The notes: a model not told the origin generated them from the sequence alone. A stretch of 64,000 nt of DNA from an uncultured Acidobacteriota bacterium (GCA_963776495.1 CAVZMW010000003.1:196326-260325); one strand, 5' to 3'. Positions 17,406-44,113 are shown, counted from the stretch's first letter. Translations and numbers: made by a program.

Positions 17406-17525
17406 CGTCCCCCGCCACAGCTCAGAACGCCGGGCTGGAACGGCCTCAACACGGTTCGTCACAATCCGGCGTGGGCTCTCGATCGGAAACGATGCCTGGC
17501 GCGTCGTCCGCAGCCAGTCCCTCGC
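17406..17525. repeat. 120-bp dispersed repeat, copy 1 (copy 2 at 42954-43073)
   Basis: Ungapped hand alignment gives about 104/120 identities. Confidence 0.9.
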
Positions 17526-17782
17526 TGACCGGCTGGCCCAGGTCAAGCGGATCCAGCCGCCCCCCGCATGGAGTTCCTCGTGGGTGCGCAGTTGCCTCGG
17601 CGGGTGGCGTCCGGCTGACGGTACACCGCGATCGGAGGCAGAAACGACGAACATCCTGCGGGACGATCGTCAGAGGAGGCGGTAGATTCTGCGCGGGCCG
17701 TTCAGGGTGAGATGTTGTCTGGGCGCGAATCGTTGGATGCCCGAATGGAATGCCCGTTGCAGTAGCCAAGGTCGGAACGGAC

Positions 17783-18004
17783 ATGAAGAGAACAGCACCC
17801 ACACCGAGCACGCGCGGGAGGGCGAAGCGAGCGACAGGTTGCCCTGAGTTCGACGACGAGAAGCTCACCCCCAGCGAGCAGAACGCCCTCGACCACGACC
17901 TTCGCATCCTGGCGTCGTGGGGCATTCTCGGCTCTCAGCCGGCGAGACCAATCAGGGCTCGGTCGGTTCGCGCAGGCTCCGCTCGGCGGAAGTCCCGCCG
18001 GTGA
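17783..18004 (+). CDS. Small hypothetical protein, possibly antitoxin-like
   Basis: DDEKLTPSEQNALDHDLRILASWG loosely resembles DEALTPAERRAVAIGRRELASG of the 25203 ORF. Confidence 0.3.
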   Translation: MKRTAPTPSTRGRAKRATGCPEFDDEKLTPSEQNALDHDLRILASWGILGSQPARPIRARSVRAGSARRKSRR

Positions 18005-18243
18005 GCCGTCCGCCGCAGTCGGCGAATTCAGCCATTGGCCGGCGCACCGACAAAGCGGACCGTACGTGAGGCACGACCGCATCTCCGCCCCCCGCCTTGG
18101 GTCCGTTGCCAGTCATCAGTCGATCGCGCGGGACAGACTGACCACTGGCCACTATCGAGATGTGTTACCGTTAGCGCCCGGCCGAGGCTGACCGATGCGA
18201 GCGCAGCCGGCCGACATCTCAAAAAGGGGCATCGATACCGGGT

Positions 18244-18851
18244 GTCGTCTCGTCGAGGATTGCCGCAGTCTCACTTTGCGTATGGGCCGTGGCTGCCATC
18301 GCTGGCGCCCAGCAAGGGCCTCCCCCGGTCCCGTCAAGTGTGAGCGGCTTCGTCTTCGCTCCCGAGGTCAGGATCACGAGCGTCGATGGATCGCTCGGAG
18401 AGCTGGCGGGCTGGCACGGCGGCTGGCTGCGGCCGGACGGCGTCTTCCTGGGTGCTGGTGCCTACGCGCTCGTTGGGGCGGCGGCCGCGCGGTCATGTCT
18501 TACGGTGGGTTCGCGGCCGGTTTCGCGGCTCCGGTCAATGACCGGACGCGAATAGGCGTGCGGGGGCTCGTCGGAATCGGCCATGCGACCCTCTGGGTTC
18601 CCCCTCCTCCTTCTTCTGACGGGGATGCTTGCCTGACGAACCCGTTCCTGTGCGACTCCATAATCATCGCTGTCGCGGTAAACCCGTACTTCCTCGTGTT
18701 CGAGCCGCAGGTCACGGCCGAATCGCGTGTCGGCCGCCGTGTGTCGGTTGAAGTCGCGGTTGGTTACCGCGTGGCTGGAAGCGCGAGCGGTTACGAGAGC
18801 CGCCTGAGGGGAGCCTCCGGCAGCGCGGGCGTCAGGCTCGGACCCTTCTGA
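18244..18851 (+). pseudogene. Frameshifted outer-membrane beta-barrel-like protein
   Basis: Signal-like VVSSRIAAVSLCVWAVAAIAGAQQ and beta-strand N-half in the 18289 frame continue as SYGGFAAG...EPQV...VGYR...GSAGVRLGPF in the 18195 frame; one extra G in the G4 run at 18475-18478 restores the frame. Start uncertain. Confidence 0.6.
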
Positions 18852-19154
18852 GACTCGGAGACAGTGGGCGGCATTGGCGGCTCATACCGCATCGCCACTG
18901 CCCCCGAGCCGAACTCCAGCCGGCTCACGAGCTTCAAGTCGATACGCTTCGACCCGGTTCAGGGTGCTCGACACGACCCAAGAGTACGACCGATGGGGCC
19001 GCCTGGCAATCGTCGCCACGGCGGTCTCCCTCCCGTCTGGCAGCCGCGGCGATCTGGCGTCAGCACAGGCGCCAGGCCTGCGGAGATTCCAGCGCGTTCT
19101 CGCGCGTTCCGACCGGCACGTCGCGTGCATTGACGACGATGTACGATGCGAACC

Positions 19155-19721
19155 GTGGCACGGGTCCCGCCGTTCGATCGCCCGGCGACCTACGAGGATT
19201 TCGTCAAGCTCCCCGACAACCTGGTGGCCGAGATCGTGGGCGGGGAGTTGCACGCGTCGCCTCGCCCGGCGCCGCGCCACTCAGTCGCCGAGACGATCCT
19301 CGGTACCTTGATAGCCGGGCCGTTTCATCTCGGTCGCGGGGGCCCCGGCGGATGGTGGGACCTCCAGGAACCCGAACTGCACCTCGCGGCCGACGTCGTC
19401 GTGCCCGACTTCGCCGGCTGGAGGCGGGTCCGCATGCCCGCACCGCCAGAAACGGCTTACATCGACCTGGCGCCCGACTGGGTGTGCGAGATCCTCTCTC
19501 CCTCGACGGCCTCGCTCGACCGAACGCGGAAGCTCGCCATCTACGCGCGCGAGCGAGTCGGTCACGCCTGGCTGGTGGACCCGTTGGCCCGAACGCTCGA
19601 GGTCCTGCGACTCGAGGCCGACCATTGGGCGATCGTGTCCTCGCACGAGGGACGGGAGTCGGTCCGCGCGGAGCCGTTCGCGGCGGTCGAGCTGGGGCTA
19701 TCCGATCTGTGGGTCGATTAA
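19155..19721 (+). CDS. Uma2 family PD-(D/E)XK endonuclease, copy 1 (alt. ATG 19146)
   Basis: ATYEDF, AEIVGGEL, VVPDFAGW, PDWVCEILSPST, WLVDP; TACGAT box 7 nt before GTG. Confidence 0.92.
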   Translation: MARVPPFDRPATYEDFVKLPDNLVAEIVGGELHASPRPAPRHSVAETILGTLIAGPFHLGRGGPGGWWDLQEPELHLAADVVVPDFAGWRRVRMPAPPETAYIDLAPDWVCEILSPSTASLDRTRKLAIYARERVGHAWLVDPLARTLEVLRLEADHWAIVSSHEGRESVRAEPFAAVELGLSDLWVD

Positions 19722-19730
19722 CGACTGGCC

Positions 19731-19857
19731 CCCGATTCCTCAACCCGTTCACCGATTGATCCGCCCGTCTACCGATTGATCCGCCCGTCTACCGATTGAT
19801 CCGCCCGTCTACCGATTGATCCGCCCGTCTACCGATTGATCCGCCCGTCTACCGATT
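19731..19857 (+). repeat. 20-bp tandem satellite, 5 perfect copies of ACCGATTGATCCGCCCGTCT (19751-19850) plus degenerate ends
   Basis: Direct read; no unique spacers. Confidence 0.97.
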
Positions 19858-19875
19858 TCCGAATTCTCACTCCCC

Positions 19876-19917
19876 TTGACAATCGACAGGAGAACGTCTA
19901 GTCTCTTGTCGATTGTC
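19876..19917 (+). promoter_or_regulatory. sigma70 promoter TTGACA-N17-TAGTCT overlapped by a 16-bp-arm inverted repeat (putative PadR operator)
   Basis: -35 at 19876-19881, -10 at 19899-19904; arms GACAATCGACAGGAGA (19878-19893) and TCTCTTGTCGATTGTC (19902-19917) match 15/16. Confidence 0.75.
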
Positions 19918-19929
19918 TGGAGGTAAGCG

Positions 19930-20259
19930 ATGACGGCCGAGAAACGGGAGCTCCTGCAGGGGACGCTCGACCTGCTGGTGCTGAAGACCCTCGCCCTCGA
20001 GCCGATGCACGGCTGGGGCATCTCGCAGCGGATCCAGCAAATCTCGAAGGACGTGCTGTCGGTCACGCAGGGGTCTCTCTACCCCGCCCTCCACCGCCTG
20101 GAGGTGCAGCGGCTCATCGCGTCCGAGATGGGAACCTCCGAGAACAACCGCAAGGCGCGCTTCTACCGGTTGACGGCCGCGGGCCGAAAGCGCCTCGCGG
20201 CCGAGACGGAAAGCTGGGAGCGCCTGTCGCTCGCGGTGGCTCGGATCCTGGAGGCCTAG
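19930..20259 (+). CDS. PadR family regulator, acidobacterial type
   Basis: [41 protein letters not shown]. Confidence 0.95.
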
Positions 20260-20314
20260 GTTCCCGGCGCCGTTCGCGGTCGGGCGCGGTCCCGTTCGTT
20301 GGTCCGAGGTGGCG

Positions 20315-22927
20315 ATGCTGCTCGAACTGCTGGCTCGCATCACGGCACGATTTCAGCGGCGCGACGTCGAACGTGAGGTCGACGCCGAGCTCGCCTTTCA
20401 CCTGGAGATGCAGACCGAGGCGAACCGCGCGCGCGGGATGACGCCCGGCGACGCGCGCCGGGCGGCCCTTCAGTCTCTCGGCGGAGCCGACCAGGTCAAG
20501 GAGGCCGTACGCGACTCACGCGGCACCTGGATCGACTCCGTCTGGCAGGACGTTCGGTACGGCGTCCGTGTTCTTCGCAGCTCGCCCGCATACGCGCTCG
20601 GGGTCATCGTCACGCTCGGCCTCGGCATCGGCGCCACGACGGCCGTGTTCTCGGTCGCCGACGCCGCCGCGCTTCGCCCGCTTCCCTACTCGCGGCCCGA
20701 TCGCCTCTTCGGCATCCACAGCCGATCGACATCCAACGGCCAGGTCTCGATGGGTGTCAGCATCCGCGACTTCCTCGTGTGGCGCGATCACCAGAAGGAC
20801 TTCGGACGAGTCTCGCTGGTCGGCGGCGGGACCTACAACCTCGTCGAAGGCGAGCCCGAGCAACTCAGAGGCTGTGAAGTCACCGGCGACATCTTCGAGA
20901 CACTGGGCGCGAAGCCGCTGCTGGGCCGCGTGTTCGGCCGCGAGCACGAGGTCAGGGGCAACCACTTCGTCGCGGTCATCGGCTACGGGTTCTGGCAGCG
21001 GCGGTTCGGCGGCGACCCGCACATCGTCGGACGGCGGCTGCGCCTCGACGGAGGAGTGTACGAGGTCCTGGGCGTCATGCCGGCCGGATTCACGTTCCCG
21101 CCGAGCGTCCGTCCGTACGATTTGTGGACGCCCTTCTCGTTCGACGCGTCGGCCAGGGAAGACGTGTCACCAGGTCGTAGCGCCGTGCTTCGCTTGAAGG
21201 ACGGCGTGTCCCCGGCACAGGCCGACGCCAGGCTGCAGTCGCTTTCCGGCGGCCTGAAGCAGATCCCGGGCTTTGGCTGGCGGCCCTTTCTGCTGCCGCT
21301 GGACGAGATCGAGGTCGGAGACAGCAAGCGCTGGATGGCGATGCTCCTGGGCGCGGCAGCGTTCGTGCTGCTCATCGCGTGCGCGAACGTGGCCCACCTG
21401 ACGCTGTCCCGCACCTCCGGCCGTGCTCGTGAGCTCGCCGTGCGGCGGGCGCTCGGAGGCGGGCGCCTTCGCCTCGTCCGCCAACTGGCGACCGAGAGTC
21501 TTCTCTTGTCGTCGGTGGCGACCGGGGTCGGCGTCCTGGTGGCGTGGACGGGCGTGCGGATTTTGAGCGCGTCCGCTCCGCGCAGCCTCGCTCGCCTGGC
21601 GGACATTGCCGTCAACGGGCGCGTGCTGGCGTTTGCCGTCGCGGCAGGTCTCGTGACGGGGCTCCTTTCCGCGGTGCTTCCAGCGGTGCGCGGCGCCCGG
21701 GCCGACGTCGTGGGTGGACTCAAGGACGGCGGCCCGCTGGCCACCGGTGGACGCGTCGGGCGCCGCTTCCGGGAGGCGCTGGCCTTCAGCGAGGTGGCCC
21801 TGTCGTTCGTGCTGCTGGCCGGGGCCGCGCTCTTCATCGCGAGCTTCATCCGGCTGATGAGCGTCGAACCTGGTTTCGACGTGCGCAACCTCGTCGTGCT
21901 CGAGGTCGACGTCCCGAAAGACGTGACCGCCGGGGGGCGCAGCCTCGCCGATCTGGAAACGCTGCTCGACCGGGTGCGCCGGACGCGCGGCGTCACGGGT
22001 GCCGGCGTGATCGCGAGCGGCTGGATGTTCGGCGGCGGTCAAATGACCTATCCCGCGCACGAGCCCGGTTCGCCGCGTCCACAGGGCGAAACCGGGTCCA
22101 GCGACCTCACGTGGGTGACTCCAGGCTTCTTCCGTGTCCTGGGTGTTCCACTGGTTCGCGGCCGCGACCTGGACGACCACGATACGATGAGCGCGCCGCC
22201 GGTGATCCTCGTGAACCAGACCGCGGCCCGTCGTCACTGGGGCGGCCTGAATCCGCTGGGCCGACAGCTCGTGGTTCAAGATCGAACCTACGAGGTGGTG
22301 GGCGTCGTCGGCGACATCGCGCAGGTCGGCACCGACGCCGGACCACGCCCGGTGCTCTACATTCCGCTGGCGCAGATGAAGCGCCGGGCGTACGGCTCGT
22401 TCGTCGCGCGTCTCGACGGTCCGGTCAGTGACACGATGGCCGGCATGAGGCGCGCGGTCCACTCCGTCTGGCCGCAGCAGCCGATCTCGAGGGTCGCCAC
22501 GCTCGAAGATGGCATCTGGCGCAGCACGACCACTCGACGCTTCAACACGATCCTGATGGCCGTCTTCGGGATCCTGGCGGTCGTCATCGCCGTCTCGGGG
22601 TTGAACAGCGTCATGACCTGCTCGGTGGGCGAGCGACGTCGCGAGATGGCGATCCGTCTCGCCCTCGGCGCGCGGCGGGACCAGGTGATCAGGACTGTGC
22701 TCGGCCGAAGCGCGCTGATCACGCTGCTCGGCGTCGGGGCGGGCGGCGGAGCGGCGTGGGCGCTCGGCCGCTACGTGGAGAGCTACCTCTTCGAGATTCG
22801 GCCGCACGACCCGCGCGTCCTGGCCGCCGCGGCCCTGCTTCTTGCGCTGCTGGCGATCCTGGCGTGCTGGCCGCCGGCCCGGCGGGCGTCGAACACCGAT
22901 CCGGTGGCGGCGCTCAAGACCGAGTAA
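20315..22927 (+). CDS. ADOP-type duplicated ABC permease (MacB-PCD/FtsX x2) with N-terminal prefix domain
   Basis: EVDAELAFHLEMQ, QDVRYGVRVL, LLIACANVA, RELAVRRALG, RREMAIRLALGA; no ATPase gene adjacent. Confidence 0.92.
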   Translation: MLLELLARITARFQRRDVEREVDAELAFHLEMQTEANRARGMTPGDARRAALQSLGGADQVKEAVRDSRGTWIDSVWQDVRYGVRVLRSSPAYALGVIVTLGLGIGATTAVFSVADAAALRPLPYSRPDRLFGIHSRSTSNGQVSMGVSIRDFLVWRDHQKDFGRVSLVGGGTYNLVEGEPEQLRGCEVTGDIFETLGAKPLLGRVFGREHEVRGNHFVAVIGYGFWQRRFGGDPHIVGRRLRLDGGVYEVLGVMPAGFTFPPSVRPYDLWTPFSFDASAREDVSPGRSAVLRLKDGVSPAQADARLQSLSGGLKQIPGFGWRPFLLPLDEIEVGDSKRWMAMLLGAAAFVLLIACANVAHLTLSRTSGRARELAVRRALGGGRLRLVRQLATESLLLSSVATGVGVLVAWTGVRILSASAPRSLARLADIAVNGRVLAFAVAAGLVTGLLSAVLPAVRGARADVVGGLKDGGPLATGGRVGRRFREALAFSEVALSFVLLAGAALFIASFIRLMSVEPGFDVRNLVVLEVDVPKDVTAGGRSLADLETLLDRVRRTRGVTGAGVIASGWMFGGGQMTYPAHEPGSPRPQGETGSSDLTWVTPGFFRVLGVPLVRGRDLDDHDTMSAPPVILVNQTAARRHWGGLNPLGRQLVVQDRTYEVVGVVGDIAQVGTDAGPRPVLYIPLAQMKRRAYGSFVARLDGPVSDTMAGMRRAVHSVWPQQPISRVATLEDGIWRSTTTRRFNTILMAVFGILAVVIAVSGLNSVMTCSVGERRREMAIRLALGARRDQVIRTVLGRSALITLLGVGAGGGAAWALGRYVESYLFEIRPHDPRVLAAAALLLALLAILACWPPARRASNTDPVAALKTE

Positions 22928-23056
22928 CCGGAGGAGGGCCCGTCCTCCGTTTCCTCGACCCGGCCACCGACTTCGCAGTGCGAGCGTCGACCGGCTGGGC
23001 GGCCCCGATGCAAACGCGTCGCCAGGGCCGGGCGCTTCGCTCGCGAGCCGCTCCGT

Positions 23057-23098
23057 CCCTCGACCTTGCTCGGGAAGCCCTGAGCGCCAGTCGAAGGG
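23057..23098. repeat. REP-like palindromic element; relatives at 16584-16620 and 43093-43133
   Basis: The reverse complement CCCTTCGACTGGCGCTCAGGGCTTCCCGAGCAAGGTCGAGGG aligns with CCCTTCGACTCGCTCAGGGCCGCCCCGAGTCATGCCGAGGG at 43093. Confidence 0.65.
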
Positions 23099-23420
23099 CG
23101 CAGGCCGGGAAAGCCTCCTCGCGGTGCCTCGGTTTCCGGATCTCTCCGTCCGGCTGGCGCTATCCGCGCTCGATCGACCGCACGCGCTTCGCCGGGGAAA
23201 CGCGAGGCACGCGCTCGCCGGCCTCCGCTCGCCAAAGATCTGGCGAGCTACGGCCAGGCCGCGCCGAAGCTGCGCATCACACGATCCTGCGCAGCGGAGG
23301 CGGGTCGCTTTCCGTGTCGTGGCTGGACGGCCTGCTCCGAAGGCTCGCTCGCGACGCATCCCGTCCCTGTCGCCGCCACCTCCATCGTGGCCTCGTGTTC
23401 AGCCGACCACTGTTCCCGTC

Positions 23421-23800
23421 CTCCGATTCCTCTCGCCGTCCTCCGATTGATCTGTCCGTCTTCCGATTGATCTGTCCGTCTTCCGATTGATCTGCCCGTC
23501 TTCCGATTGAAATGCCCGTCTTCCGATTGATCTGCCCGTCTTCCGATTGATCTGCCCGTCTTCCGATTGATCTGTCCGTCCTCCGATTGATCCGCCCGTC
23601 CTCCGATTGATCCGCCCGTCCTCCGATTGATCCGCCCGTCCTCCGATTGATCCGCCCGTCCTCCGATTGATCCGCCCGTCCCCCGATTGATCCGCCCGTC
23701 CTCCGATTGATCCGCCCGTCCTCCGATTGATCCGCCCGTCCTCCGATTGATCCGCCCGTCCCCCGATTGATCCGCCCGTCCCCCAATTGTCGGTTCCGTC
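23421..23800 (+). repeat. 20-bp tandem satellite, 17 copies (23441-23780) of YYCCGATTGATCYGYCCGTC plus degenerate ends
   Basis: Direct read; same core unit and orientation as the array at 19751. Confidence 0.97.
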
Positions 23801-23806
23801 CCCCGG

Positions 23807-24937
23807 TCAGAGCCAGCGTCGCTTCCAAAACCACGCGACCATCCCCAGCGCCGTGACGACGCAGATCCCCCAGAAGACGGGGTAGCCCCACACCCATCCG
23901 ATCTCGGGGAAGTACTTGAAGTTCATGCCGTAGACGCCCGCGAGGAAGGTCAACGGGATGAAGATGGTGCCGATGATGGTCAGCACCTTCATGACCTCGT
24001 TGAGCCGCTGGCTCATCGCGCTCATGTAGGTCTCGGTGAGGCCCGTCGCCATTTCGCGGTAGGTCTCGACGATGTCGATGATCTGCACCGTGTGGTCGTA
24101 CACGTCGCGCATGTAGGTGCGGGTCGCGTCGCTCATGCACGCGTGCGGCTCGCGCTGCAGGGCGCTGATCACCTCCCGCATCGGCCACACCGCCCGGCGC
24201 AGCAGCAGGAGTTCGCGCTTGAGCGTGTGGATGTCCTGGATGGCGGCCGGCGTCGGCCGCTGCAGCACCTCGACCTCGGCGTCCTCCAGACGGTCGCCGT
24301 AGAGCTCGAGGATCGGGAAGCAGTGGTCCACGATCGCGTCGAGCAGGGAGTGGACCAGGAAGCTGGCGTCGTTGGCCCGGAGCCGCGACCCCGGCGTCCT
24401 GGCGCGCTGGCGGATCCCGTCCCAGACGTCGCCGCGGCTCTCCTGGAAGGTGAGCACGGTGCGGCGCCCGAGGAAGATGCTGATCTGCTCGCTGCGCAGG
24501 TGGCCGTCGGCGAGTTCGAGCATGCGCGCGATGATGAACAGCCGCGCCTGGAGCTCGCCGTCGTCCTCGTACGGCTCGACCTTCGGCCGATGGGTGACGT
24601 GGAGGAGGTCCTCGATGGCCAGGGGGTGCAGGTGGTACTTCTCGGCCAGCCTGCCGATGGCTTGCGGGTCGCTGAGACCGTCCACGTTGATCCAGCGCAC
24701 CGTGGCCCACTCGGGACGATGACCGGCGAGGAACGCGTCGAGATCCGTCACCTCCAGCACCTGGGACTGATGGGGCCCGTAGTCGATGCAGGTGATCGAG
24801 ACCGGCTCCTGCGTGCCCGGCATGCGCGCGAGCTCCGACAATTCGATCCCGGCGACGGCTCCGGGCTTCGACCGCTTGCGCAGCCGCGGCACGCCGAAAT
24901 GCGGCCGCGTCGGTTTCGGGTTTGCCCTCGTGGTCAT
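23807..24937 (-). CDS. corA: Magnesium/cobalt transporter CorA
   Basis: WINVDGL, HPLAIED, EQISIFLG, DVYDH, GVYGMNF signature. Confidence 0.96.
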   Translation of the reverse strand: MTTRANPKPTRPHFGVPRLRKRSKPGAVAGIELSELARMPGTQEPVSITCIDYGPHQSQVLEVTDLDAFLAGHRPEWATVRWINVDGLSDPQAIGRLAEKYHLHPLAIEDLLHVTHRPKVEPYEDDGELQARLFIIARMLELADGHLRSEQISIFLGRRTVLTFQESRGDVWDGIRQRARTPGSRLRANDASFLVHSLLDAIVDHCFPILELYGDRLEDAEVEVLQRPTPAAIQDIHTLKRELLLLRRAVWPMREVISALQREPHACMSDATRTYMRDVYDHTVQIIDIVETYREMATGLTETYMSAMSQRLNEVMKVLTIIGTIFIPLTFLAGVYGMNFKYFPEIGWVWGYPVFWGICVVTALGMVAWFWKRRWL

Positions 24938-25202
24938 CGCGTTCGCGCCTCCGCCGCGCTGGAACGCCGGTAGTATACCCTCCGGCCTCCAGTGATCGGC
25001 ACCGCCGACCGGCCCGCCGGTTCGCGACCCGCGGCGCAACCTCGCCATCCAGATGCCCGAAGTGCGTCGCAAGTGCCGCCGCCAGGCACCCAGCTCCCGT
25101 AGCCGTGTCTGCCGCGCGCCCTGACTGGTCCGGTGAGTTCTTTCGACATTCCCCGCTTCCCCGCCTGGAACGGCACGTACATCGACGATGCTAGAATGCG
25201 TT

Positions 25203-25436
25203 ATGCCTCGAACACGAACCGCTCAGGCGCCAGACACGACCAGAGTCAAGCGCGGTGCGGGTCGCCGGCCGCCCGCGGACGAGGCCCTCACTCCAGCCGA
25301 GCGGCGCGCCGTCGCCATCGGCCGTCGCGAGCTGGCCTCCGGCGACTTCGTGACGGTGGAGCGGCTGTGCCGTGAATTGGAAGGTCCGCCTCGCCCGGAG
25401 CGCGGCGCGCGCCGTTCACGGAGCGCCTCCCGCTGA
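25203..25436 (+). CDS. Putative antitoxin of a type II TA pair
   Basis: Small ORF overlapping the RelE-like gene; extended -10 TG-C-TAGAAT 5 nt before the ATG. Confidence 0.6.
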   Translation: MPRTRTAQAPDTTRVKRGAGRRPPADEALTPAERRAVAIGRRELASGDFVTVERLCRELEGPPRPERGARRSRSASR

Positions 25437-34389: not shown

Positions 34390-34397
34390 GGGGGCGA

Positions 34398-34413: not shown

Positions 34414-34468
34414 CCCTCATCTCCACATCCGAATCTCGTCTCAAGGTCCCAGGAACTTGAGGAGCGGC

Positions 34469-35907: not shown

Positions 35908-38456
35908 TCCTGCTCAGGCTGATCAGCTGGCCGTACACCCGCAAGCACATCCTCCGGACCCTCCTGACCACGGCGGGCATCGTCCTCGGCGTCGGCGTGT
36001 TCGTCGGGATGCACACCGCGAACCAGTCGGTCCTCTACGCGCTCCACGAGACGGTGGACCGGATCGCCGGCACGACCCAGTTGCAGGTCACGGCGGGCGA
36101 GAGCGGGTTCGACGAGGGCGTGCTCGAGCGGGTGCAGGACGTGCCTGAGGTCCGGGTCGCGGTCCCGGTCATCGAGGCCGTCGTGGACACCGAGCTGCCG
36201 GGCCAGGGCAGCGTGATGATCCTGGCCGTGGACATGACGGGCGACGGATCCTTGCGCGACTACGCGCTCGAGAGCGGCGACGAGCCGATCGTGGACGACC
36301 CGCTGGTCTTCCTGGCGCAGCCCGATTCGCTGATCGTGACGCGGGAGTTCGCCCTGCAGAACCACCTGCAGACGGGCAGCGTCGTCCCGATGCGGACGAT
36401 GGAGGGGCCGAAGCGGTTCGTCGTCCGCGGGATCATGAAGTCGAGCGGCCTGGCGAAGGCCTTCGGCGGCAATCTCGCGATCATGGACGTCTACGCCGCC
36501 CAGAAGGTGTTCGGGCGGGGACGCAAGTTCGACCGGATCGACCTGGCGGTCCGCGAGGGCTACTCGATCGAGCAGTGCCGCGCCGCGCTCGAGAAGACGC
36601 TGGGGCCCGGCTTCGAGGTCGAGACGCCGGCCAGCCGCGGTCAGCAGTTCGACTCGGTGCTCCGCGTCTACTCGGTGACGGTGAACATCACGAGCCTGTT
36701 CGCGCTCTTCATCGGGATGTTCATCATCTACAACTCGTTTGCGATCGCGGTGACGCAGCGCCGGGCGGAGATCGGAATCCTCAGGGCGCTGGGCGCGACG
36801 CGCCGGCAGATCCGCGGGTTGTTCCTGGCCGAGAGCGCCGTCGCGGGCCTGGTCGGCTCGACGCTCGGCCTCGGGTTCGGCTACCTGCTGGCGAGGGGGA
36901 CGGCCGGCTACGTCGGGCAGATGCTCCAGGGGATTTCGGGTGTCGCGCAACGGGTCGAGGAGGTCGCCACCGACCCCAGGCTGATGGGGCTCGCCGTCGT
37001 GATGGGCGTCGTGACCAGCATGGTGGCGGCGTTCGTCCCGGCACGAAACGCGGCGCGCGTCGATCCGGTGCAGGCGCTGCAGAAGGGGCGCTACCAGGTG
37101 CTGTCGGCCGGCGAGAACCGCGCGCGCCTCGTGGTGGCCCTCGCGTTCGCGGCGGTCTCGGCCGGATGCCTGGTGGCCGGCACCGGCGATCTCGCCTTCT
37201 ACGCCGGCTTCGTCCTCGCCATGGCCGCCGCGCTGCTCCTGACGCCGGCGCTGGCGCTGTGGCTCACGCGCGGCCTCCGGCCGCTGCTCGGCTGGCTGTG
37301 GCCGGTCGAGGGCGCGCTGGCGGCCGACAGTCTGATCCAGGCGCCCCGGCGGACGTCGGCCACGGTGTCGGCGCTGATGCTCTCGCTGAGCATGACGATC
37401 GGCCTCGGCGGAATCTCGAAGGCCAGCTACGAGTCGATCACCGACTGGATGGGCACGGCCCTCAACCCGGACCTGTTCGTCACCGCGTCGCCCACGCTGA
37501 CCAGCCGCAGCTTCCTGTTCCCCGCCGCCCTCGGGCCGACGATCGAGCAGGTAGACGGCGTGGAGCAGGTGCAGAGCGTCCGCACGCCGCGCATCCGGTT
37601 CCGCGGCACGCCGGTGCTGCTCATCGCGGTCGAGATCCAGAAGTGGGCGGCCCGCGCCGGCCGGAGGCCCATGGAGGGCCGGCCCGACGAGGCGTACCGG
37701 CTGGCCGCCGAGGGCCGGGGGACGATCCTGTCGCAGAACCTGGCGTCGATGAAGGGCCTCCACGTCGGCGATGCCATCGACATCCCTACCCCGACCGGCC
37801 CGCTCCGTCTCCCCGTCGTCGGGATCATCGAGGACTGGTCCGACCAGCAGGGCTCGATCTTCCTCGACCGCAGCGTCTACCGGAAGTGGTGGAACGACGA
37901 CCGCGTCAACACCTTCCGCGTCTACCTGCGCAAGGGCGCGTCGCTCGCCGGCGTCCGCCAGACGATCCTCACGCGGCTGTCGGCCAACCGCCGACTGTTC
38001 GTGCTCACCAACGAGGAGGTCCGGAGCTACATCACCGGCCTGACCGACCAGTGGCTCGCCCTCTCGTACTCGCAGATCGCGGTGGCGGTGCTCGTGGCCG
38101 TGCTGGGCATCATGAACACGCTGACCGTCTCGATCATGGACCGCCGCCGGGAGCTGGGCGTGCTCCAGGCGGTCGGCGCGCGGCGGCGGCAGATCCGCTA
38201 CACGATCTGGATGGAGGCCTTGAGCATCGGCTTCGTCGGCCTCGTGCTCGGCCTCGGTCTCGGCGCCATCAACCTGCATTACGTGCTGGACATGACGCAC
38301 CGCGACATCAGCGGCATGCTGATGCCCTACCGCTTCCCGACCGGGATCGCGCTGATGCTCGTCCCCGTCATCTTCTGCGCGGCGCTGGTGGCCGCGCTGT
38401 GGCCGGCCGAGTCGGCCGTGCGCGGCTCGCTCGTCCAGGCGCTGGAGTACGAATGA
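35904..38456 (+). CDS. FtsX-like duplicated ABC permease
   Basis: QRRAEIGILRALGA and RRRELGVLQAVGA; ATGA overlap with the ATPase gene. Confidence 0.92.
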   Translation: MILLRLISWPYTRKHILRTLLTTAGIVLGVGVFVGMHTANQSVLYALHETVDRIAGTTQLQVTAGESGFDEGVLERVQDVPEVRVAVPVIEAVVDTELPGQGSVMILAVDMTGDGSLRDYALESGDEPIVDDPLVFLAQPDSLIVTREFALQNHLQTGSVVPMRTMEGPKRFVVRGIMKSSGLAKAFGGNLAIMDVYAAQKVFGRGRKFDRIDLAVREGYSIEQCRAALEKTLGPGFEVETPASRGQQFDSVLRVYSVTVNITSLFALFIGMFIIYNSFAIAVTQRRAEIGILRALGATRRQIRGLFLAESAVAGLVGSTLGLGFGYLLARGTAGYVGQMLQGISGVAQRVEEVATDPRLMGLAVVMGVVTSMVAAFVPARNAARVDPVQALQKGRYQVLSAGENRARLVVALAFAAVSAGCLVAGTGDLAFYAGFVLAMAAALLLTPALALWLTRGLRPLLGWLWPVEGALAADSLIQAPRRTSATVSALMLSLSMTIGLGGISKASYESITDWMGTALNPDLFVTASPTLTSRSFLFPAALGPTIEQVDGVEQVQSVRTPRIRFRGTPVLLIAVEIQKWAARAGRRPMEGRPDEAYRLAAEGRGTILSQNLASMKGLHVGDAIDIPTPTGPLRLPVVGIIEDWSDQQGSIFLDRSVYRKWWNDDRVNTFRVYLRKGASLAGVRQTILTRLSANRRLFVLTNEEVRSYITGLTDQWLALSYSQIAVAVLVAVLGIMNTLTVSIMDRRRELGVLQAVGARRRQIRYTIWMEALSIGFVGLVLGLGLGAINLHYVLDMTHRDISGMLMPYRFPTGIALMLVPVIFCAALVAALWPAESAVRGSLVQALEYE

Positions 38457-38530
38457 GGGGCCAGGATTCTTGCCGGCTTCCGGCTCTCGGCTCTCGACTT
38501 TCGGCCGAGTCGCGCCTGACAGGGCGGCTG

Positions 38531-39295
38531 ATGTTCCTGCTGGTGCCGCTTGCGGCGGCGCTGATCGCCCTCGCGCCGGCCCCGTCGTTCGGGCAGGAGG
38601 CCCGGCGGATCATGGAGGAGGCGCAGAAGCGCACCCGCGCCTCATCCGAGCACTACGAGGGGACGCTGCAGGTGTTCGACGCGAAGGGGAAGATCAGCGA
38701 CAAGCGGTGGACGTTCGACCGCCTGGGCTCCCACGGGTCGAGCCGGTCGGTCCTCCGGTTCACCGCGCCGCCCGAGGTCAAGGGCGTCGCGCTGCTGGTC
38801 GTGAACCACCCGGAGCGGGCGTCGGACCAGTGGATGTGGACGCCGGCCATCGGGCGAGACCGGCGCGTGGCGCTCCAGGATCGGTCGCAGCGGTTCTTCG
38901 GCACCGACTTCAGCTTCGAGGACCTGGAGGAGCGCGACGTCGATCAGTACGACTACTCGATGGACGGCGAGGACACGCTTGGCGGGGCCGCCTGCTGGCG
39001 GATCGTCGCGAAGCCGCGCTCGACCAAGGTGTCGCAGTACACCCAGTCGCGCGTGTGGGTGCGAAAGGACAACTACGCCTACCAGCAGGTCGAGAGCTAC
39101 ATCAAGTCCCAGGTCGTCCGGATCCTGAAGTACAGCGACATCCAGAACGTGCAGGGGATCTGGTCCGGCCGAACGCTCGAGATGACCGACCTTCGCCGGA
39201 AGAGCCGGACGGTGCTGAAGCTCGACGCGCTGAAGTACAACGTGCCGATGAAGGAAGAGGACTTTACCTTGCAGGGGCTCCGCCGAGACCAATGA
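38531..39295 (+). CDS. LolA-like outer membrane lipoprotein-sorting family protein
   Basis: Signal peptide; LRFTAPPEVKGVALL, DQWMWTPA, FFGTDFSFEDL. Confidence 0.85.
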   Translation: MFLLVPLAAALIALAPAPSFGQEARRIMEEAQKRTRASSEHYEGTLQVFDAKGKISDKRWTFDRLGSHGSSRSVLRFTAPPEVKGVALLVVNHPERASDQWMWTPAIGRDRRVALQDRSQRFFGTDFSFEDLEERDVDQYDYSMDGEDTLGGAACWRIVAKPRSTKVSQYTQSRVWVRKDNYAYQQVESYIKSQVVRILKYSDIQNVQGIWSGRTLEMTDLRRKSRTVLKLDALKYNVPMKEEDFTLQGLRRDQ

Positions 39296-40572
39296 GGGCG
39301 CCGAGGGCCGTGCCAGCGTGGGTCCTGGTGATGATGGCGGCGGCGCTGTCTTCCTCCGCCCAGCAGACCAGCCAGCGAGGCTTCCTCGAAGCGACGGGTC
39401 TCGTCTATCCCCTCGAGTCGCGCTCCGGCGACGGGCGGTGGGTTGGCGAAGTCCTGTTCCGACAGGAGGCGTCGTGGCGGCCGGCGCAGTGGCTGTCGCT
39501 CGCCGGGACGTTCGACGCGCGGGCGGCCACCACCGACTGGGTGGAAAAGAGCTGGTCGATCGACTGGAGCGACCGCGGGCTGAAGCGGCCCGCACTCGCC
39601 GTCAGGAGGCTGAGCGTCGCGGCCCACCGGGGCGGCCTCACCTTCGAAGCCGGCAAGCAGTTCGTGCGGTGGGGCAAGGCGGATGTGCTCAATCCCACCG
39701 ATCGCTTCGCGCCGCGCGACCTGCTCGAGGTCGTCGACAACGACGTCCTCGCGGTCACGGCCGCGCGGCTCACCTACGAACGCGGCGCCGACACCCTCGA
39801 CCTGGTCGTCTCCCCTCGCCTGACGCCGAGCCGCCTTCCGCTGGCCGGGGATCGCTGGTTCCCGTCGGTCGCCGCGGTGGCGCCACCCGGAAGCCTGCCG
39901 CCCGGCGCCTCCGGCTGGCCGGTCGTCGTCGTGGGGTCGGAGTTCCCGACGAGGCCCCAGGCCGGCATCCGCTGGAACCATGTCGGATCGGGATTCGAGT
40001 ATTCGCTCTCCGCCTACGACGGGTTCAACAACCTCCCGAACAGCCAGGTGAGCGTGAACCCGGTCGCGCTCCGGTTCGAGGTGACTCGCACCTACCCGAC
40101 GATGCGGATGGTCGGCGGCGACATGGCCTGGCCTCTCCGCTGGTTCACCCTGAAAGGCGAGGCCGGCTACTTCTGGACGACGAACCCGGCGACCGACGAC
40201 TACGGGATCTACGTCGTCCAGCTCGAGCGGCAGGTCGCGGAGTGGACGATCGTCGGCGGCTACGCGGGCGAGTTCGTGACCGTGACGCGGTCGGCGCTGC
40301 CGGCGCAGTTCACGGCCTTCGACCGCGGACTCGCGAAGACGTTCCTGGGACGCGCATCGTACACGATCGACGTGAACCGGAGCCTCGCCTTCGAGGGCGC
40401 CGTCCGCCAGAACGGCCGGGGCTTCTACGTCAAGGCCGAGTGCTCGCAGGCCTTCGGCCAGCACTGGCGCGCGAGCGTCAGGGCCGACGTGATCGGCGGT
40501 GCGCTCGACGACTTCCTGGGGCAGTACCGCCGAAACTCCTCGGCCCGCCTCGTTCTCCGTTACAGCTACTGA
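39292..40572 (+). CDS. Putative outer-membrane beta-barrel protein (DUF1302-like position)
   Basis: Signal peptide; GKQFVRWGKADVLNPTD; ends LRYSY; ATGA overlap. Confidence 0.75.
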   Translation: MRAPRAVPAWVLVMMAAALSSSAQQTSQRGFLEATGLVYPLESRSGDGRWVGEVLFRQEASWRPAQWLSLAGTFDARAATTDWVEKSWSIDWSDRGLKRPALAVRRLSVAAHRGGLTFEAGKQFVRWGKADVLNPTDRFAPRDLLEVVDNDVLAVTAARLTYERGADTLDLVVSPRLTPSRLPLAGDRWFPSVAAVAPPGSLPPGASGWPVVVVGSEFPTRPQAGIRWNHVGSGFEYSLSAYDGFNNLPNSQVSVNPVALRFEVTRTYPTMRMVGGDMAWPLRWFTLKGEAGYFWTTNPATDDYGIYVVQLERQVAEWTIVGGYAGEFVTVTRSALPAQFTAFDRGLAKTFLGRASYTIDVNRSLAFEGAVRQNGRGFYVKAECSQAFGQHWRASVRADVIGGALDDFLGQYRRNSSARLVLRYSY

Positions 40573-40574
40573 AC

Positions 40575-40709
40575 GCCGGGGCTGAAGCCCCGGCCTACGT
40601 GTTGGTCACCGACGGCCGACGACCGACGGCTGACGGCGGCGCCCCGCGAGGTGGCTCAAGGCTCAGGGCGCCGGCGTTCTCACCGGTAGGGCAAGGCTTC
40701 AGCCTTGCC
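40575..40709. repeat. Inverted pair of GTAG-type REP-like hairpins (40575-40598 minus, 40686-40709 plus)
   Basis: GTAGGCCGGGGCTTCAGCCCCGGC and GTAGGGCAAGGCTTCAGCCTTGCC: GTAG foot, 8-bp stem, TTCA loop. Confidence 0.75.
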
Positions 40710-40740
40710 GAGCGGCTCGCCGCCACAGCCTTGGCCAAGA

Positions 40741-40920
40741 ATGCCCGATCTCCACCGCTGCTGGAGCAAGGACGCCGACTGCAGGGCCGCCTGCGACGCC
40801 CTCGGCGAAGAGTTCGACCTCGCTCGTGCGCTGATCGAGGCCCGGAGTGGGGCGGAGCTGTCGCAGTCGCAGCTGGCCAGGAGGATGAAGACGTCGCAGT
40901 CCAATATCGCACGCGCGTCG
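40741..40920 (+). pseudogene. Truncated paralogue of the downstream XRE antitoxin
   Basis: DLHRCWSKDADCRAACDALGEEFDLARALIEARSGAELSQSQLARRMKTSQSNIAR aligns with the 41450 protein, then diverges. Confidence 0.8.
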
Positions 40921-41126
40921 ATCCCTGGGCCCTACGCCTCGAGCCGGCCCGGCGAGCGACCGTCCTTGAATTGAGCGGGCCTGGGAAAGTGGTGAGCCGC
41001 CTCTTCACGGGTTGGAACCAGTTGAACGGGTGGTTGCGGCAGGTCGAGGCGCTGCGACGAGCGGCGTGAACCAGGGACCGGCCGTGTCCTGTCGATGCCG
41101 ATACCATATCTGGTATTATGGTCACG

Positions 41127-41453
41127 ATGCCGTGGAGCGTCGAGACTCTGAACGAGACGGTCGATGCCGAGCTGGCAGAGCTGCCGCCGGACGTGCGGGC
41201 GCGACTCGTGCGGATCGCCGAACTGATCGCATCCGTCGGCTTGCCGAACGTCAAGGAGCCGCACGTTCGCCACATCCGAGGTCCGTTGTGGGAAATTCGG
41301 CTCAAGGGGAAGGCCGGCGTTGCTCGCGCTCTCTACGTGACCGCGAGAGTGCAGCGGGTCGTCATCCTGCGGGCTTTCGTCAAGAAGACCGAGAAGACGC
41401 CCGCGGGCGAGATCGACGTGGCCTTGGAGAGGGCCAAGGAACTGAAGCCATGA
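41127..41453 (+). CDS. RelE/HigB-like (Gp49-like) toxin
   Basis: PHVRHIRGPLWEIRLKG...RALYVT...VILRAFVKKTEKTP; TATTAT 7 nt before the ATG; inverted repeat ATACCA-TATC-TGGTAT at 41101-41116. Confidence 0.88.
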   Translation: MPWSVETLNETVDAELAELPPDVRARLVRIAELIASVGLPNVKEPHVRHIRGPLWEIRLKGKAGVARALYVTARVQRVVILRAFVKKTEKTPAGEIDVALERAKELKP

Positions 41454-41737
41454 CGAAGATCAGCGAACTCCATCGTCGCTGGAGCAACACCGCCGAGTAC
41501 AAGCATGCCTACGACGCACTCGAAGAGGAGTTCGACCTCGCGCGAACACTGATCGAGGCGCGGACGGGAGCCGGCCTGTCGCAGGCGCAGTTGGCGCGCC
41601 GTATGAAGACGTCGCAGTCCTACATCGCTCGCCTCGAGGGTGGGAAGGTGCGTCCGTCGACCAGCGCTCTCGAGCGATTCGCCCAGGCTACCCGGACCCG
41701 CCTGCGGATCGTCTTCGAGCCGAACGCGGCGGGCTGA
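41450..41737 (+). CDS. XRE/HigA-like HTH antitoxin
   Basis: GLSQAQLARRMKTSQSYIARLEGGKVRPS; ATGA overlap with the toxin. Confidence 0.9.
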   Translation: MTKISELHRRWSNTAEYKHAYDALEEEFDLARTLIEARTGAGLSQAQLARRMKTSQSYIARLEGGKVRPSTSALERFAQATRTRLRIVFEPNAAG

Positions 41738-42237
41738 GTGAGCGTCAACGACCGAGAGGCCGTACAAACGGCGAGGGCCCCCTGGTCATCCCAGTCCACC
41801 CTCATCCGTTGAGGGGCGCAACGGACGCTGTTGCCCCGACCTCAGGTCAGCCAACGCGTCTTCCACCGTCAGTCTCCGGCGGTCGAGGAGCGCCAGGCTG
41901 TGCTGTGAGCCAAGGGGGGCACGAGAGGGGGAACACCGGCTGAAGCGCAGTGTCCCCCCTCCGGTCAGCCGGTCCGATTGCAGCGGCGGTCTCCGCACGC
42001 ACAACGCCGACGCCCGTGCGGCCGGCTGCTTGTCGAGACAATCGGCAACATCAGCGGCTTCCGACTGCCTGTGGGTGCAGGGCAGTGAACATAACCGCCC
42101 GTTCTCAAACGTCGGCTACTGGGATTCGGGGCCGCGCCAGCCGCCGCGCCTTCCCGGCGGCACCGGCGCGGCCGCGGCCCGCGTGGCCAGCTTTGGTCGC
42201 CACTCCGGTTGCGCAGTCCCTACGAGGTCCTCGGGAA

Positions 42238-42837
42238 TCAGGGATTAATGAGGCACTGAGAGTCGGGCCGCGTCTTTGTAGCGAGCACCTTCCCCGAATC
42301 ACTCTCCACGCTTACCGCAAAGCAGAATGACCGCGTGGACGTGGGGACTCTGTCGAAGGACGTGCCTCCGACTGCGAGCACGAGTTCACTGCCTTTCCAA
42401 GACACGAATCTGGGAAGGTAGAATTCGATCTTCCTTCCATCGCCTGGTTGTCTCCCCAGGACTGATCGTATCGTTCTATCCGTATCCCCTTCCGTTCTCT
42501 TTCCCTCACGGGAGTACAGACACACCTCATACTGGTCGGCGGTCGCTTCATCGATAACCAGAATCCGATGGCTGTCGCCGCTCCACAGCGCCTGCGCTGC
42601 TCTCGTCAAGGTAAAGAGGTCCCACTGCCTTCCGTCAGAGAGCCTGCGAACGACCACAGGTGAGTGATTCTCTTCGTCGGTGAGGATCGGATGAACCTCA
42701 ATTTGGAACCGTCCGTCAGGGGATTTCACCGTCGCGCCCTCGCTCCAATGAAGGAACACCGGGCGATCCAGCGGTTGGGCCGCTAGCGCGATAACACCTG
42801 TAATGACAACGACAAGTGGTCGTCTCGTGTTCTTCAT
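42238..42837 (-). CDS. Hypothetical exported protein, visibly lower GC
   Basis: 199-aa ORF with N-terminal hydrophobic segment; more AT-rich than its surroundings. Confidence 0.6.
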   Translation of the reverse strand: MKNTRRPLVVVITGVIALAAQPLDRPVFLHWSEGATVKSPDGRFQIEVHPILTDEENHSPVVVRRLSDGRQWDLFTLTRAAQALWSGDSHRILVIDEATADQYEVCLYSREGKRTEGDTDRTIRSVLGRQPGDGRKIEFYLPRFVSWKGSELVLAVGGTSFDRVPTSTRSFCFAVSVESDSGKVLATKTRPDSQCLINP

Positions 42838-42953
42838 TTCACCACCGCTATCCAGCAGGGCAACCCGCGCCTGAGGCGGCCGGAAAGCTAATCACTACTG
42901 GCATGTTCTGTATCCCGGAAGGAACGCAAGCGTCAACTGCCGCCGAGCCCACG

Positions 42954-43073
42954 CGTCCCCCGACACGGCGCAGACGGCCGGGCCGGAACGTCCTCAACAC
43001 GGTTCGTCGTCACCCGGCGTGGGCTCTCGATCGCAGACGATGCCTGGCCCGTCGTCCGGGGCCAGTCCCTCGC
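42954..43073. repeat. 120-bp dispersed repeat, copy 2
   Basis: About 87% identical to 17406-17525 by hand alignment. Confidence 0.9.
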
Positions 43074-43177
43074 CATCGACCGCGATGAGCGGCCCTTCGA
43101 CTCGCTCAGGGCCGCCCCGAGTCATGCCGAGGGGCGGCCGCAATCGGTAGCGGCCCAGGCGCTCGAGACGGTGACGG

Positions 43178-43347
43178 TGGTCCGCCAGCCAGCCACAGCG
43201 CAGGTACGCGCGGAACCTCCCCCTCCACGAACCGTGGCAGCCCCTGCCACCACGCAGTCCCGCCGACTGCAGGCGGAACGTCTCGAGGTCGTCGCGCACC
43301 ACCCGGTACAGCGCACTCTGACCGGGACGGCGAGACCGGTACGAATC
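43178..43347 (-). mobile_element. Degenerate IS91-family-like transposase N-terminal (zinc-binding domain) remnant
   Basis: Frameshifted peptide YRSRRPGQSALYRVVRDDLETF / GLPRFVEGE / FRAYLRCGWLA resembles the recalled IS91-like N-terminal pattern YxRRRPExxxLYxVV...LPxFVxxEFxxYLxCG. Confidence 0.65.
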
Positions 43348-43546
43348 CGAATCGCGGCCCCTCGTCTTCTTGGAGATCCGGACCCGTTGTCAACCAGGCA
43401 GTCGTGGCCACCGCGCTCCCCCTCCCGACTGGCAGGCACGGCGATCTGGCGTCAGCACTGCCGCCCGGCCTGCGGAGATTCCGGCGAGTTCAGGCGCGTT
43501 CCGGCCGGCACGCGGCGTGCACGGACGACGATGTACAATGCGAGCC

Positions 43547-44113
43547 GTGGCACGGGTCCCGCCGTTCGATCGACCGGCGACCTATGACGATCTCGTCAAG
43601 CTCCCCGACAACCTGGTAGCCGAGATCGTGGACGGGGAACTGCACGCCTCCCCGCGGCCGGCGCCCCGCCATGCGGTGGCCGAGACGGCTGTCGGCATGC
43701 TGCTCGGCAATCCGTTCCATTTCGGTCGCGGCGGTCCTGGCGGCTGGTGGATTCTCGCAGAACCGGAGCTTCATCTCGGGTCCGACGTCCTCGTTCCCGA
43801 CTACGCGGGCTGGCGCCGAACTCGCATGCCCTCGATTCCAGATAAGGCCTACTTCGAGCTGGCGCCCGACTGGCTATGCGAGGTCATCTCGCCCTCGACG
43901 GCCTCGCTCGATCGCACGCGGAAGCTCGCCGCGTACGCGCGAGCGGGGGTGCCTCACGTCTGGCTGGTCGATCCGCTGGCGCGGACGCTCGAAGTGCTCC
44001 GCCTCGAAGCGGGCCGCTGGACCATCGTGGCCTCGCACGCGGGAAACGAGACGGTCCGCGCCGAGCCGTTCGGCGAGGTCGAGCTGGCGCTCGCGGATCT
44101 CTGGGTGGACTGA
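43547..44113 (+). CDS. Uma2 family endonuclease, copy 2 (alt. ATG 43538)
   Basis: Close paralogue of 19155-19721; TACAAT 7 nt before GTG. Confidence 0.92.
   Translation: MARVPPFDRPATYDDLVKLPDNLVAEIVDGELHASPRPAPRHAVAETAVGMLLGNPFHFGRGGPGGWWILAEPELHLGSDVLVPDYAGWRRTRMPSIPDKAYFELAPDWLCEVISPSTASLDRTRKLAAYARAGVPHVWLVDPLARTLEVLRLEAGRWTIVASHAGNETVRAEPFGEVELALADLWVD

Follow-up and report, generated by a model that had tools for sequence, protein, structure and literature searches.

Relics of ISCR-like rolling-circle insertion sequences lie beside Uma2 genes in an uncultured Acidobacteriota bacterium

One-ended transposition is known for the insertion sequences (IS) IS91 and IS1294 and for the ISCR elements, whose best-known role is the spread of drug-resistance genes on proteobacterial plasmids; for ISCR1, capture followed by homologous recombination is the proposed route. 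In IS91, terIS lies upstream and oriIS downstream of the transposase gene tnpA, and read-through at terIS takes along the DNA upstream of tnpA (PMC13181058). The subject of this study is a 64-kb stretch of DNA from an uncultured Acidobacteriota bacterium (hereafter the window; G+C 69%) with two loci, A and B, at which remains of an element of this superfamily are found near Uma2 genes. Uma2 (DUF820, PF05685), a family of putative nucleases that has expanded in some phyla, is classed as a PD-(D/E)XK family by remote homology (PMC1913061), and our literature search found no paper linking Uma2 with IS91. A first-pass annotation of the window had proposed that both loci are relics of a rolling-circle element family that carries a Uma2 nuclease divergent from its transposase and swaps its interior for cargo. 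We favor, with moderate confidence, a different account, in which decayed ISCR-like IS copies lie head-to-head with resident, recombining Uma2 paralogs, and Uma2 is a neighbor by history and not a passenger.

When each locus was compared with the whole window by sensitive blastn, two blocks proved to be common to both loci, with order and orientation conserved, as the first-pass annotation had described. The first (17371-17525 = 42919-43073; 155 bp, 82% identity, E = 1e-35) includes the 120-bp core of the repeat reported earlier (17406-17525 and 42954-43073), the second pairs 19002-19731 with 43394-44120 (730 bp, 80%, E = 1e-179), and the spacer between them measures 1476 bp in locus A versus 320 bp in locus B. 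The closest Uma2 homologs were traced to their contigs, one of which (L007) thereby gave an intact transposase gene, a called 584-aa gene with Zn_Tnp_IS91 and Y2_Tnp domains that is divergent from Uma2. By tblastn against the window this transposase matched the minus strand of locus B with residues 45-100 (43350-43183; 75% over 56 aa, E = 1e-18), 350-372 (43185-43117) and 527-584 (43146-42997; E = 6e-8), and that of locus A with residues 560-584 (17523-17449). A transposase protein profile also matched the locus B remnant (E = 1e-17), and a protein-profile search of all six frames turned up no further remnant of the gene anywhere in the window. Pieces collinear with the intact IS were likewise found with an IS DNA profile built from four intact elements, in locus B at profile positions 22-215 (43373-43181), 962-1014 (43184-43132), 1500-1678 (43093-42915) and 1709-1824 (42150-42036), and in locus A at positions 1517-1729 (17528-17313).

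By these alignments the 120-bp repeat is not an element terminus, as had been supposed. It is the tail of a minus-strand transposase gene of the ISCR/IS91 superfamily, made up of the final 25-35 codons, the stop codon and the 3' UTR, and the locus B repeat and the adjacent "IS91-like remnant" are parts of one transposase pseudogene; we hold this identity of the parts with high confidence. It derives from the intact relative's transposase and not from family searches of the translated relic frames, which gave no Pfam match and only a weak NCBIfam match to ISCR_clade_Ia (E = 0.0085). A structured RNA was considered for the repeat and rejected, since Rfam returned no match in the window or in L007 and its folding energy was no better than that of shuffles (z from -1.3 to +0.4); for these reasons a coding-gene remnant with its untranslated region (UTR) is preferred. 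A 20-mer from the repeat, CCGGCGTGGGCTCTCGATCG, gave four chance matches without extended likeness in reference genomes (the source genome not being among them), and public reads yielded only thin soil, wetland and peat contigs, with no relic-free allele and no transcripts among them.

Relic B is the more complete of the two. Its 5' part (43181-43373, minus strand; profile E = 3e-41, together with tblastn and the weak ISCR_clade_Ia match) covers the remnant first placed at 43178-43347, encodes residues ~41-100 and reads SDSYRSRRPGQSALYRVVRDDLETF...YLRCGWLA, and the existence of this remnant is upheld by all three of tblastn, protein profile and IS DNA profile. The middle piece (43132-43184, minus strand; residues 350-372; profile E = 2e-8, tblastn and protein profile), DHRHRLERLGRYRLRPP, keeps the invariant Tyr. 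The 3' part (42915-43093, minus strand; profile E = 2e-28, tblastn E = 6e-8) comprises the tnp C-terminus, the stop codon and the 3' UTR, and the tblastn match to residues 527-584 begins upstream of it and overlaps the middle piece. Farther out lies a terminal ~115-nt IS unit of the oriIS side (42036-42150, minus strand; IS profile E = 4e-13, unit profile E = 6e-24), in the orientation expected for the locus B tnp relic. The pseudogene, which accounts for all of the DNA from the repeat to the block in locus B, keeps residues 41-100, 350-372 and 527-584, with two large deletions and two compensating frameshifts, and the promoter-bearing left tip of the IS is deleted.

Relic A (17313-17528, minus strand; profile E = 7e-30, tblastn, and alignment with L007, L088, L095 and L097) is an IS 3' piece only, 1.6 kb from Uma2-A, and may mark an IS once sited at that distance from the gene. 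Its last ~25 codons (17523-17449) end EGLAADDAPGIVSDREPTPDCDEPC, the stop codon occupies 17448-17446, and the UTR extends to the CTTGTCAGAGTGGCGC motif. A tnp N-terminus remnant beside the locus A block was also considered and rejected, since 68 of 2000 shuffles attained its local alignment score and the stretch makes better sense as the tail of a RibD_C gene. The catalytic HUH part is deleted from the window copies, which are dead relics and not a working member of the IS91/ISCR superfamily. Two short open reading frames (ORFs) to the left of relic A (16847-17065 and 17103-17288) have coding-like third-position G+C and no family match, and may be two frames of one broken gene.

The kind of element is best judged from the L007 transposase, which matches Y2_Tnp (PF04986, E = 1e-21) and Zn_Tnp_IS91 (PF14319, E = 4e-19) and has an HxH at 221-223 and a Tyr at 362 that are invariant in the alignment with relatives; where the IS91 motif has the first Tyr of the Y2 pair, the alignment appears to show Arg. 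The true start is probably residue 41, as in 25 aligned relatives, which would make the protein ~544 aa. Against the NCBIfam model "ISCR element clade Ia" it aligns over the full length (E = 2e-101) with 340 bits, far below the cut-off of 925, and against transpos_IS91 it scores 93 bits, under the cut-off of 125. The element is thus placed by its domains and profile matches in the IS91/ISCR superfamily, as the first-pass annotation had named it, but in no curated subfamily. Of the named relatives on plasmids, ISCR2 comes closest, with 38% identity across 88% of the L007 transposase. The family numbers 5042 protein clusters at E <= 1e-10, and the few clusters with a named source are labeled as metagenome-assembled genomes of Vicinamibacterales, Acidobacteria or, in a single instance, Euryarchaeota.

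With ISCR and ISCR2 the intact relative's element shares the Zn-binding N-terminus, the HxH, the invariant Tyr and a conserved 3' end region, in which a stretch with CTTCC, ~85 nt past the stop codon, bears a loose likeness to the oriIS of ISCR2 (...TTCTTCCTATACG); this likeness was rejected as homology, being a short CTTCC-type resemblance with no significant alignment. It differs from ISCR in its score, in its soil Acidobacteriota-like hosts and in having Uma2 as its neighbor instead of resistance genes. With IS91, IS801 and IS1294 it has the two transposase domains in common, and it differs from the IS91 family in its sub-threshold score, in lacking orf121 and in that no GTTC/CTTG target was shown.

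Comparison of L007 with L088, L089 and L009 gives an intact element of ~1.9 kb, made up in order of a left tip with TGGCAC-N5-CTGCA, the ~544-aa tnp gene, ~130 nt of 3' UTR and a terminal ~115-nt unit. The left tip (with TGGCAC-N5-NTGC in 7/7 scanned IS copies), the 3' stretch and the terminal unit are conserved across intact copies, and the unit lies 240-310 nt after tnp in L007 and L088 and in the more distant L008, L009, L021 and L042. Solo copies of the unit occur in L007 (three), L092 (three) and L042, and once in the window (42036-42150); one hairpin of the unit shows weak covariation. The left boundary maps to CAGCTCTCG... in L007, L095 and L094. For the right boundary there are two candidates, the outer edge of the unit and a CTGT/CTTG junction ~125 nt after the stop codon, at which three solo units and relic A break and just inside which the CTTCC stretch lies. 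In L007, four unit copies are flanked by TGCC, TCGC, TGGT and GTCC; the alternative junction has CTGT or CTTG, and no conserved oriIS/terIS tetranucleotide or GTTC/CTTG target was fixed among the flanks examined. Inverted repeats between the IS ends were not noted by eye in the end alignments, no dedicated search having been made. Empty-site alleles, which the first-pass annotation had suggested seeking, gave nothing clean: L090 differs from locus B by 2.8 kb of mixed content, and L092, considered as the empty site of the L007 insertion, was rejected when the IS profile brought to light 71 bp of the tnp 3' end, fused to the junction exactly where L007 has the IS tip. Survival of this piece implies that the 3' piece tends to outlast decay.

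A GC-rich palindromic element resembling repetitive extragenic palindromes (…GGGCCGCC…CGAGGGGC…) is found in the IS 3' region, beside both relics in the window (17262-17335 and 43082-43141) and in L007 at 6448-6502, 7948-8002 and 8228-8282, where within the C-terminal coding part of tnp it adds ~23 residues. Different gene sets interspersed with copies of the ~115-nt unit fill L007 2773-8035 and L092 5652-8251, variable stretches bounded by an amidohydrolase gene on one side and Uma2-guaA on the other. Among the variable genes of L007 are ORFs that open with motifs like the end of an Rhs core (YVRNNPLRLIDPNGL, RNNPLRYVDPAG) and may be orphan toxin tips.

Both Uma2 genes of the window are intact and encode 191-aa putative PD-(D/E)XK-type nucleases on the plus strand. 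Uma2-A (19146-19721; PF05685 E = 1e-22, 80.7 bits, profile positions 2-166 of 172) and Uma2-B (43538-44113; E = 3e-26, 92.5 bits, positions 5-171), the latter a mosaic, both score well above the cut-off of 27. Uma2-A is 88% identical to its ortholog in L005 with a ratio of nonsynonymous to synonymous substitution (dN/dS) of 0.26, and for Uma2-B the ratio is 0.13-0.14; Uma2 is under purifying selection. The subfamily holds at least 7990 proteins, the best 120 of which are mostly ~191 aa and 69-88% identical. As in the Uma2 family at large, the window has several copies and fragments within 64 kb; unlike it, these genes form a tight subfamily with a fixed sigma54-type motif 31 nt before the ATG.

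That motif lies in the ~150-bp block preceding each gene, which had been taken for part of the element. In locus A the block (19002-19145, plus strand) is, by alignment, the whole divergent intergenic stretch between the RibD_C-type gene and Uma2, and it is present in the IS-free ortholog L005; it is Uma2's own upstream region and no part of the element. A sigma54-type -24/-12 motif, GGCACGTCGCGTGCA, stands at 19115-19129. The upstream region of Uma2-B (43394-43537, plus strand) is of the A/L005 type by sliding identity, global alignment, junction alignment and motif scan, and has the motif GGCACGCGGCGTGCA at 43507-43521. GGCACG-N4-NTGCA is found exactly 31 nt before the Uma2 ATG in 10/10 loci (window A and B, L005, L006, L007, L090-L094, L097), and a scan of the window finds it at the two Uma2 positions only. 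We take this motif and that of the IS tip as matches to the sigma54 -24/-12 consensus, a pattern match that makes them candidate promoters. Likeness between unrelated Uma2 loci begins sharply at the motif (A 19113-19115).

Two further Uma2 fragments, absent from the first-pass annotation, each follow a different permease gene. The one at 48836-48943 is a 3' end of Uma2 whose tail is of B type; the one at 56324-56447, immediately behind its permease gene, is an internally deleted copy in which the promoter motif and 5' end are joined to the 3' end. In the window, L005, L006 and L090, large FtsX/MacB-type permease genes lie interspersed among the Uma2 copies. Heptamer tandem repeats of GGCTCAG/GGCTCAA type directly follow the Uma2 stop codon in the window (44115-44167), L007, L090 and L094 and occur also at window 14187-14295; L095 has heptamer repeats of GGCGTAN type at ~130-220.

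The divergent arrangement of transposase and Uma2 that had been proposed from the window is confirmed in intact copies with exactly this layout (L007, L097 and the P0123 contig). In all, the divergent IS-Uma2 pair was found in six places: window B, L007, L097, L095, L094 and the P0123 contig, the last known from gene calls only. L097 is the ortholog of the L007 locus; L095, considered as an independent context, was rejected because it is the L007-type site after heavy deletion, with only 62 nt of Uma2 left; L007, L097, L092 and L095 are one orthologous site; and L094, whose tnp is cut by the contig end, was found through Uma2-B. At least three junctions are distinct in sequence, at -186 (L007), -190 (L094) and about -145 (B) from the ATG.

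Recurrence of the pair in several contigs, the similar A-B divergence of relic and block, and the position of Uma2 upstream of tnp, on the side of read-through capture given the IS91 architecture (PMC13181058), are what would be expected of a composite rolling-circle transposon in which replication started at oriIS, ran through tnp, missed the left end and took Uma2 along, the interiors being replaced later. Other evidence makes this an improbable account. The DNA between IS tip and Uma2 is of three unrelated kinds by junction alignment and sliding identity (L007, L094 and B), each shared with IS-free Uma2 loci: the L007 type also occurs in L093 and, next to an IS relic at the junction, in L092, the L094 type in L090 and L091, and the B type in locus A and L005. 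L090 and L091 are syntenic with window 35220-40582, 43425-44187, 45568-48201 and 48903-50191, and the IS profile had no match in L090, L091 or L005. Beyond Uma2, the A-B likeness ends ~10 nt past the stop codon, that between B and L007 consists of heptamer repeats only, and no outer boundary common to the copies was found among the loci compared. Shared outer boundaries with homologous intergenic DNA enclosing both tnp and Uma2, the mark of a composite transposon, were therefore not seen, and the interior of locus A is syntenic chromosome, as set out below.

Related elements elsewhere point the same way. A metagenome search with the single L007 transposase returned no relative; with the alignment it returned related loci with transposases 43-72% identical, and Uma2 was present in the flanks of 0/80 of these, 58 of the 80 having at least 800 bp upstream. 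Nor was Uma2 found at the L088, L089 and L096 loci, although L088 belongs to the same clade as L007 (82% identity by alignment, 80% by BLASTP); its IS follows an OmpA/Pal-like gene, as read by eye. Because the junctions differ, the A and B orthologs lack the IS, the 80 IS loci lack Uma2 and the gene is under purifying selection, we argue from these comparisons that Uma2 is a resident neighbor of the IS, and the proposal of an element family carrying it is not sustained.

The same holds for the proposal that the interior of locus A is swapped-in cargo. The segment 18161-18952 contains a frameshifted putative outer-membrane barrel gene (18195-18851, plus strand) and a RibD_C-type 3' remnant (18791-18937, minus strand), and shares 91% identity with L005 4942-5734, a stretch beside Uma2 in which gene calls give a 205-aa ORF and a RibD_C gene. 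In locus A the RibD_C-type gene is cut to its last ~45 codons and the barrel gene is split by the frameshift. That the latter is a barrel pseudogene, as first annotated, is plausible from its halves in two frames, its C-terminal Phe and the 205-aa ORF of L005, whereas no Pfam barrel family matched. To the left of the L005 synteny break lies a 632-bp stretch (17529-18160; G+C 66%) with a small ORF at 17750-18004 (plus strand), for which no relative was found in any fetched locus by blastn or tblastx and no match in Pfam or NCBIfam. Because synteny with L005, a locus free of IS relics, runs through 18161-25652, the interior of locus A, apart from these 632 bp, is on this comparison the native chromosomal neighborhood of Uma2-A and not captured cargo. 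Tandem arrays of a 20-bp unit (CCGATTGATCCGCCCGTCTA) stand nearby, with ~6 copies at 19740-19857 between Uma2-A and a PadR-like gene and ~26 copies at 23335-23865 after an FtsX/MacB-type permease gene; the unit recurs in relatives at L005 10291-10404 and L007 2549-2668.

Locus B is a mosaic. The blocks of A and B are 85% identical without indels, while the synonymous sites of the two genes differ at 43%. By sliding identity, B shares 87% with A and 82% with L005 over 43398-43500, a stretch that cannot be aligned with L090 or L094; from ~43650 on, Uma2-B is 92-98% identical to L090/L094 and 67-80% to A, the 5' end of the gene being common to all types. Judged by these identities, locus B is a recombinant that joins an A-type upstream region to the coding sequence and neighborhood of L090/L094, and the conservation of the block without indel against the synonymous difference argues that the upstream region was acquired by recombination from an A-type copy. 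An exchange roughly contemporaneous with the 18% divergence of the two IS relics is suggested. Soil and wetland metagenome contigs match Uma2-B from 43506 with 2 differences in 182 nt and have upstream sequence unlike the A or L090 type; they may represent a third allele or an assembly chimera.

A mosaic of just this kind, with its switch between ~43505 and ~43650, is also what the ISCR1 route would leave if the IS with the 5' region of Uma2 had been captured from an A-type locus by read-through and had recombined with resident Uma2-B by way of the conserved promoter and 5' coding sequence, which would put the IS and an A-type block ahead of an L090-type gene. As in the complex class 1 integrons of ISCR1, the IS in locus B is accompanied by a flank of foreign type, which a conserved stretch connects to a resident gene; unlike them, locus B lacks an integron, the IS is not flanked by a duplicate of the shared segment, and nothing points to a circular intermediate. 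Post-Uma2 sequence of L090 (10610-10686) recurs at window 40635-40710, right after the upstream 426-aa gene and without Uma2, as if a second Uma2 had once been there, and the soil contigs that depart from B upstream of 43506 would fit as well. Nevertheless, the duplicate Uma2 predicted by a single circle crossover is absent, a donor with the IS directly beside an A-type block was not seen, the metagenome contigs may be chimeric, and ordinary gene conversion between paralogs accounts for the mosaic equally well, so that we regard this route as unlikely.

Under the reading we favor, the element would have moved by rolling-circle transposition and inserted itself upstream of different Uma2 paralogs, at a distance of 145-190 bp, on three or more occasions. 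The IS copies would then have decayed by deletions that spared the 3' part, L092 being the same kind of relic, and the likeness of the A and B "ends" (82% and 85%) would stem from one recombination episode between paralogous IS/Uma2 loci of the genome and not from two copies of a cargo-swapping transposon.

Several observations weigh against this sequence of events. The pairing recurs in the same orientation and at a similar distance, with the tip and Uma2 motifs 175 bp (L007) and 177 bp (L094) apart and the intervening DNA unrelated, and plain random insertion does not explain such recurrent head-to-head pairing. The donor, an IS beside an A-type block, was not found within the 64-kb window, which covers part of a contig of ~2 Mb, and the A-B divergence is similar for relic (18%) and block (15%), which fits one unit of IS, block and Uma2 5' end copied whole. 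The ends and target of the IS were not fixed, and no clean empty site was found among the loci examined. Finally, few contigs supply the context, and some of them were selected by way of Uma2.

The recurrent pairing would be accounted for if the element preferred sites beside Uma2, or stayed active only there, either because an enhancer-dependent, sigma54-type tnp promoter borrows the activator sites of the divergent Uma2 gene or because the upstream edge of Uma2 is a recombination hot spot. Three or more distinct junctions in the same orientation (-145, -186 and -190 from the ATG), conservation of both sigma54-type motifs (7/7 IS tips and 10/10 Uma2 loci) at a spacing of 175-190 bp, and the variable gene arrays of L007 and L092, which stop at the upstream edge of Uma2, are consistent with functional coupling or targeting of this kind. 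Since the motifs are matched to a consensus only, since L088 and 80 other loci show the element family elsewhere, and since the sample is small and partly ascertained through Uma2, we consider such coupling quite improbable. An equally speculative extension, to which we likewise give little credence, is that an ISCR-like element with a sigma54-type tnp promoter might be active only ~180 bp from another such promoter, and that its 115-nt units might build the arrays that end at the Uma2 edge; if true, this sigma54-dependent reading would explain the repeated head-to-head pairing and would amount to an integron-like platform built on a rolling-circle enzyme.

Returning to locus B, we find between the 3' part of the relic and the terminal unit a foreign insert of low G+C (42151-42914, minus strand; 764 bp, 59% versus 69% for the window, third-codon-position G+C 0.63). 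It parts IS positions 1678 and 1709, a distance of 30 nt in intact copies, and holds a 199-aa ORF (42238-42837) with an N-terminal hydrophobic segment whose homologs are at most 69% identical, the named ones coming from Terracidiphilus. This stretch is the only cargo-like piece, is in locus B and is horizontally acquired.

The neighborhood of locus B shows further differences from its relatives. A Gp49/HigB-like toxin gene (PF05973, E = 3e-24) and a helix-turn-helix antitoxin gene (HTH_31, E = 5e-13) occupy 41118-41737, just downstream of a 73%-identical remnant of a second toxin/antitoxin copy (40702-40914), both lying within the 2.84 kb that is present in window B and absent from L090. Between Uma2-B and the permease gene, an AAA_14/DUF4143 ATPase gene (44297-45478, within 44188-45567) stands where L090 has 56 bp. 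A hairpin motif, ATCAGATAGCGCAGGGCTTC, is found before Uma2 in L090 (9841-9863) and after Uma2-B in the window (44197-44219); it occurs once in the window and also in L090/L091, and was tried as a shared boundary motif, for which its copies are too few. Together with the orphan sequence at 40635-40710, the displaced hairpin motif hints at an older rearrangement or at a second Uma2 copy since lost.

For the annotation of the window, the "shared ends" become two dead ISCR-like IS copies, two intact Uma2 genes with candidate promoters, one acquired ORF and native neighbors. More broadly, rolling-circle elements of ISCR type form a large and diverse branch in soil Acidobacteriota-like genomes. If the pairing reflects history and recombination only, the finding is one of ordinary genome decay; if it reflects targeting or shared regulation, it would offer a handle on both partners, one of which, Uma2, is a very large family of putative nucleases.

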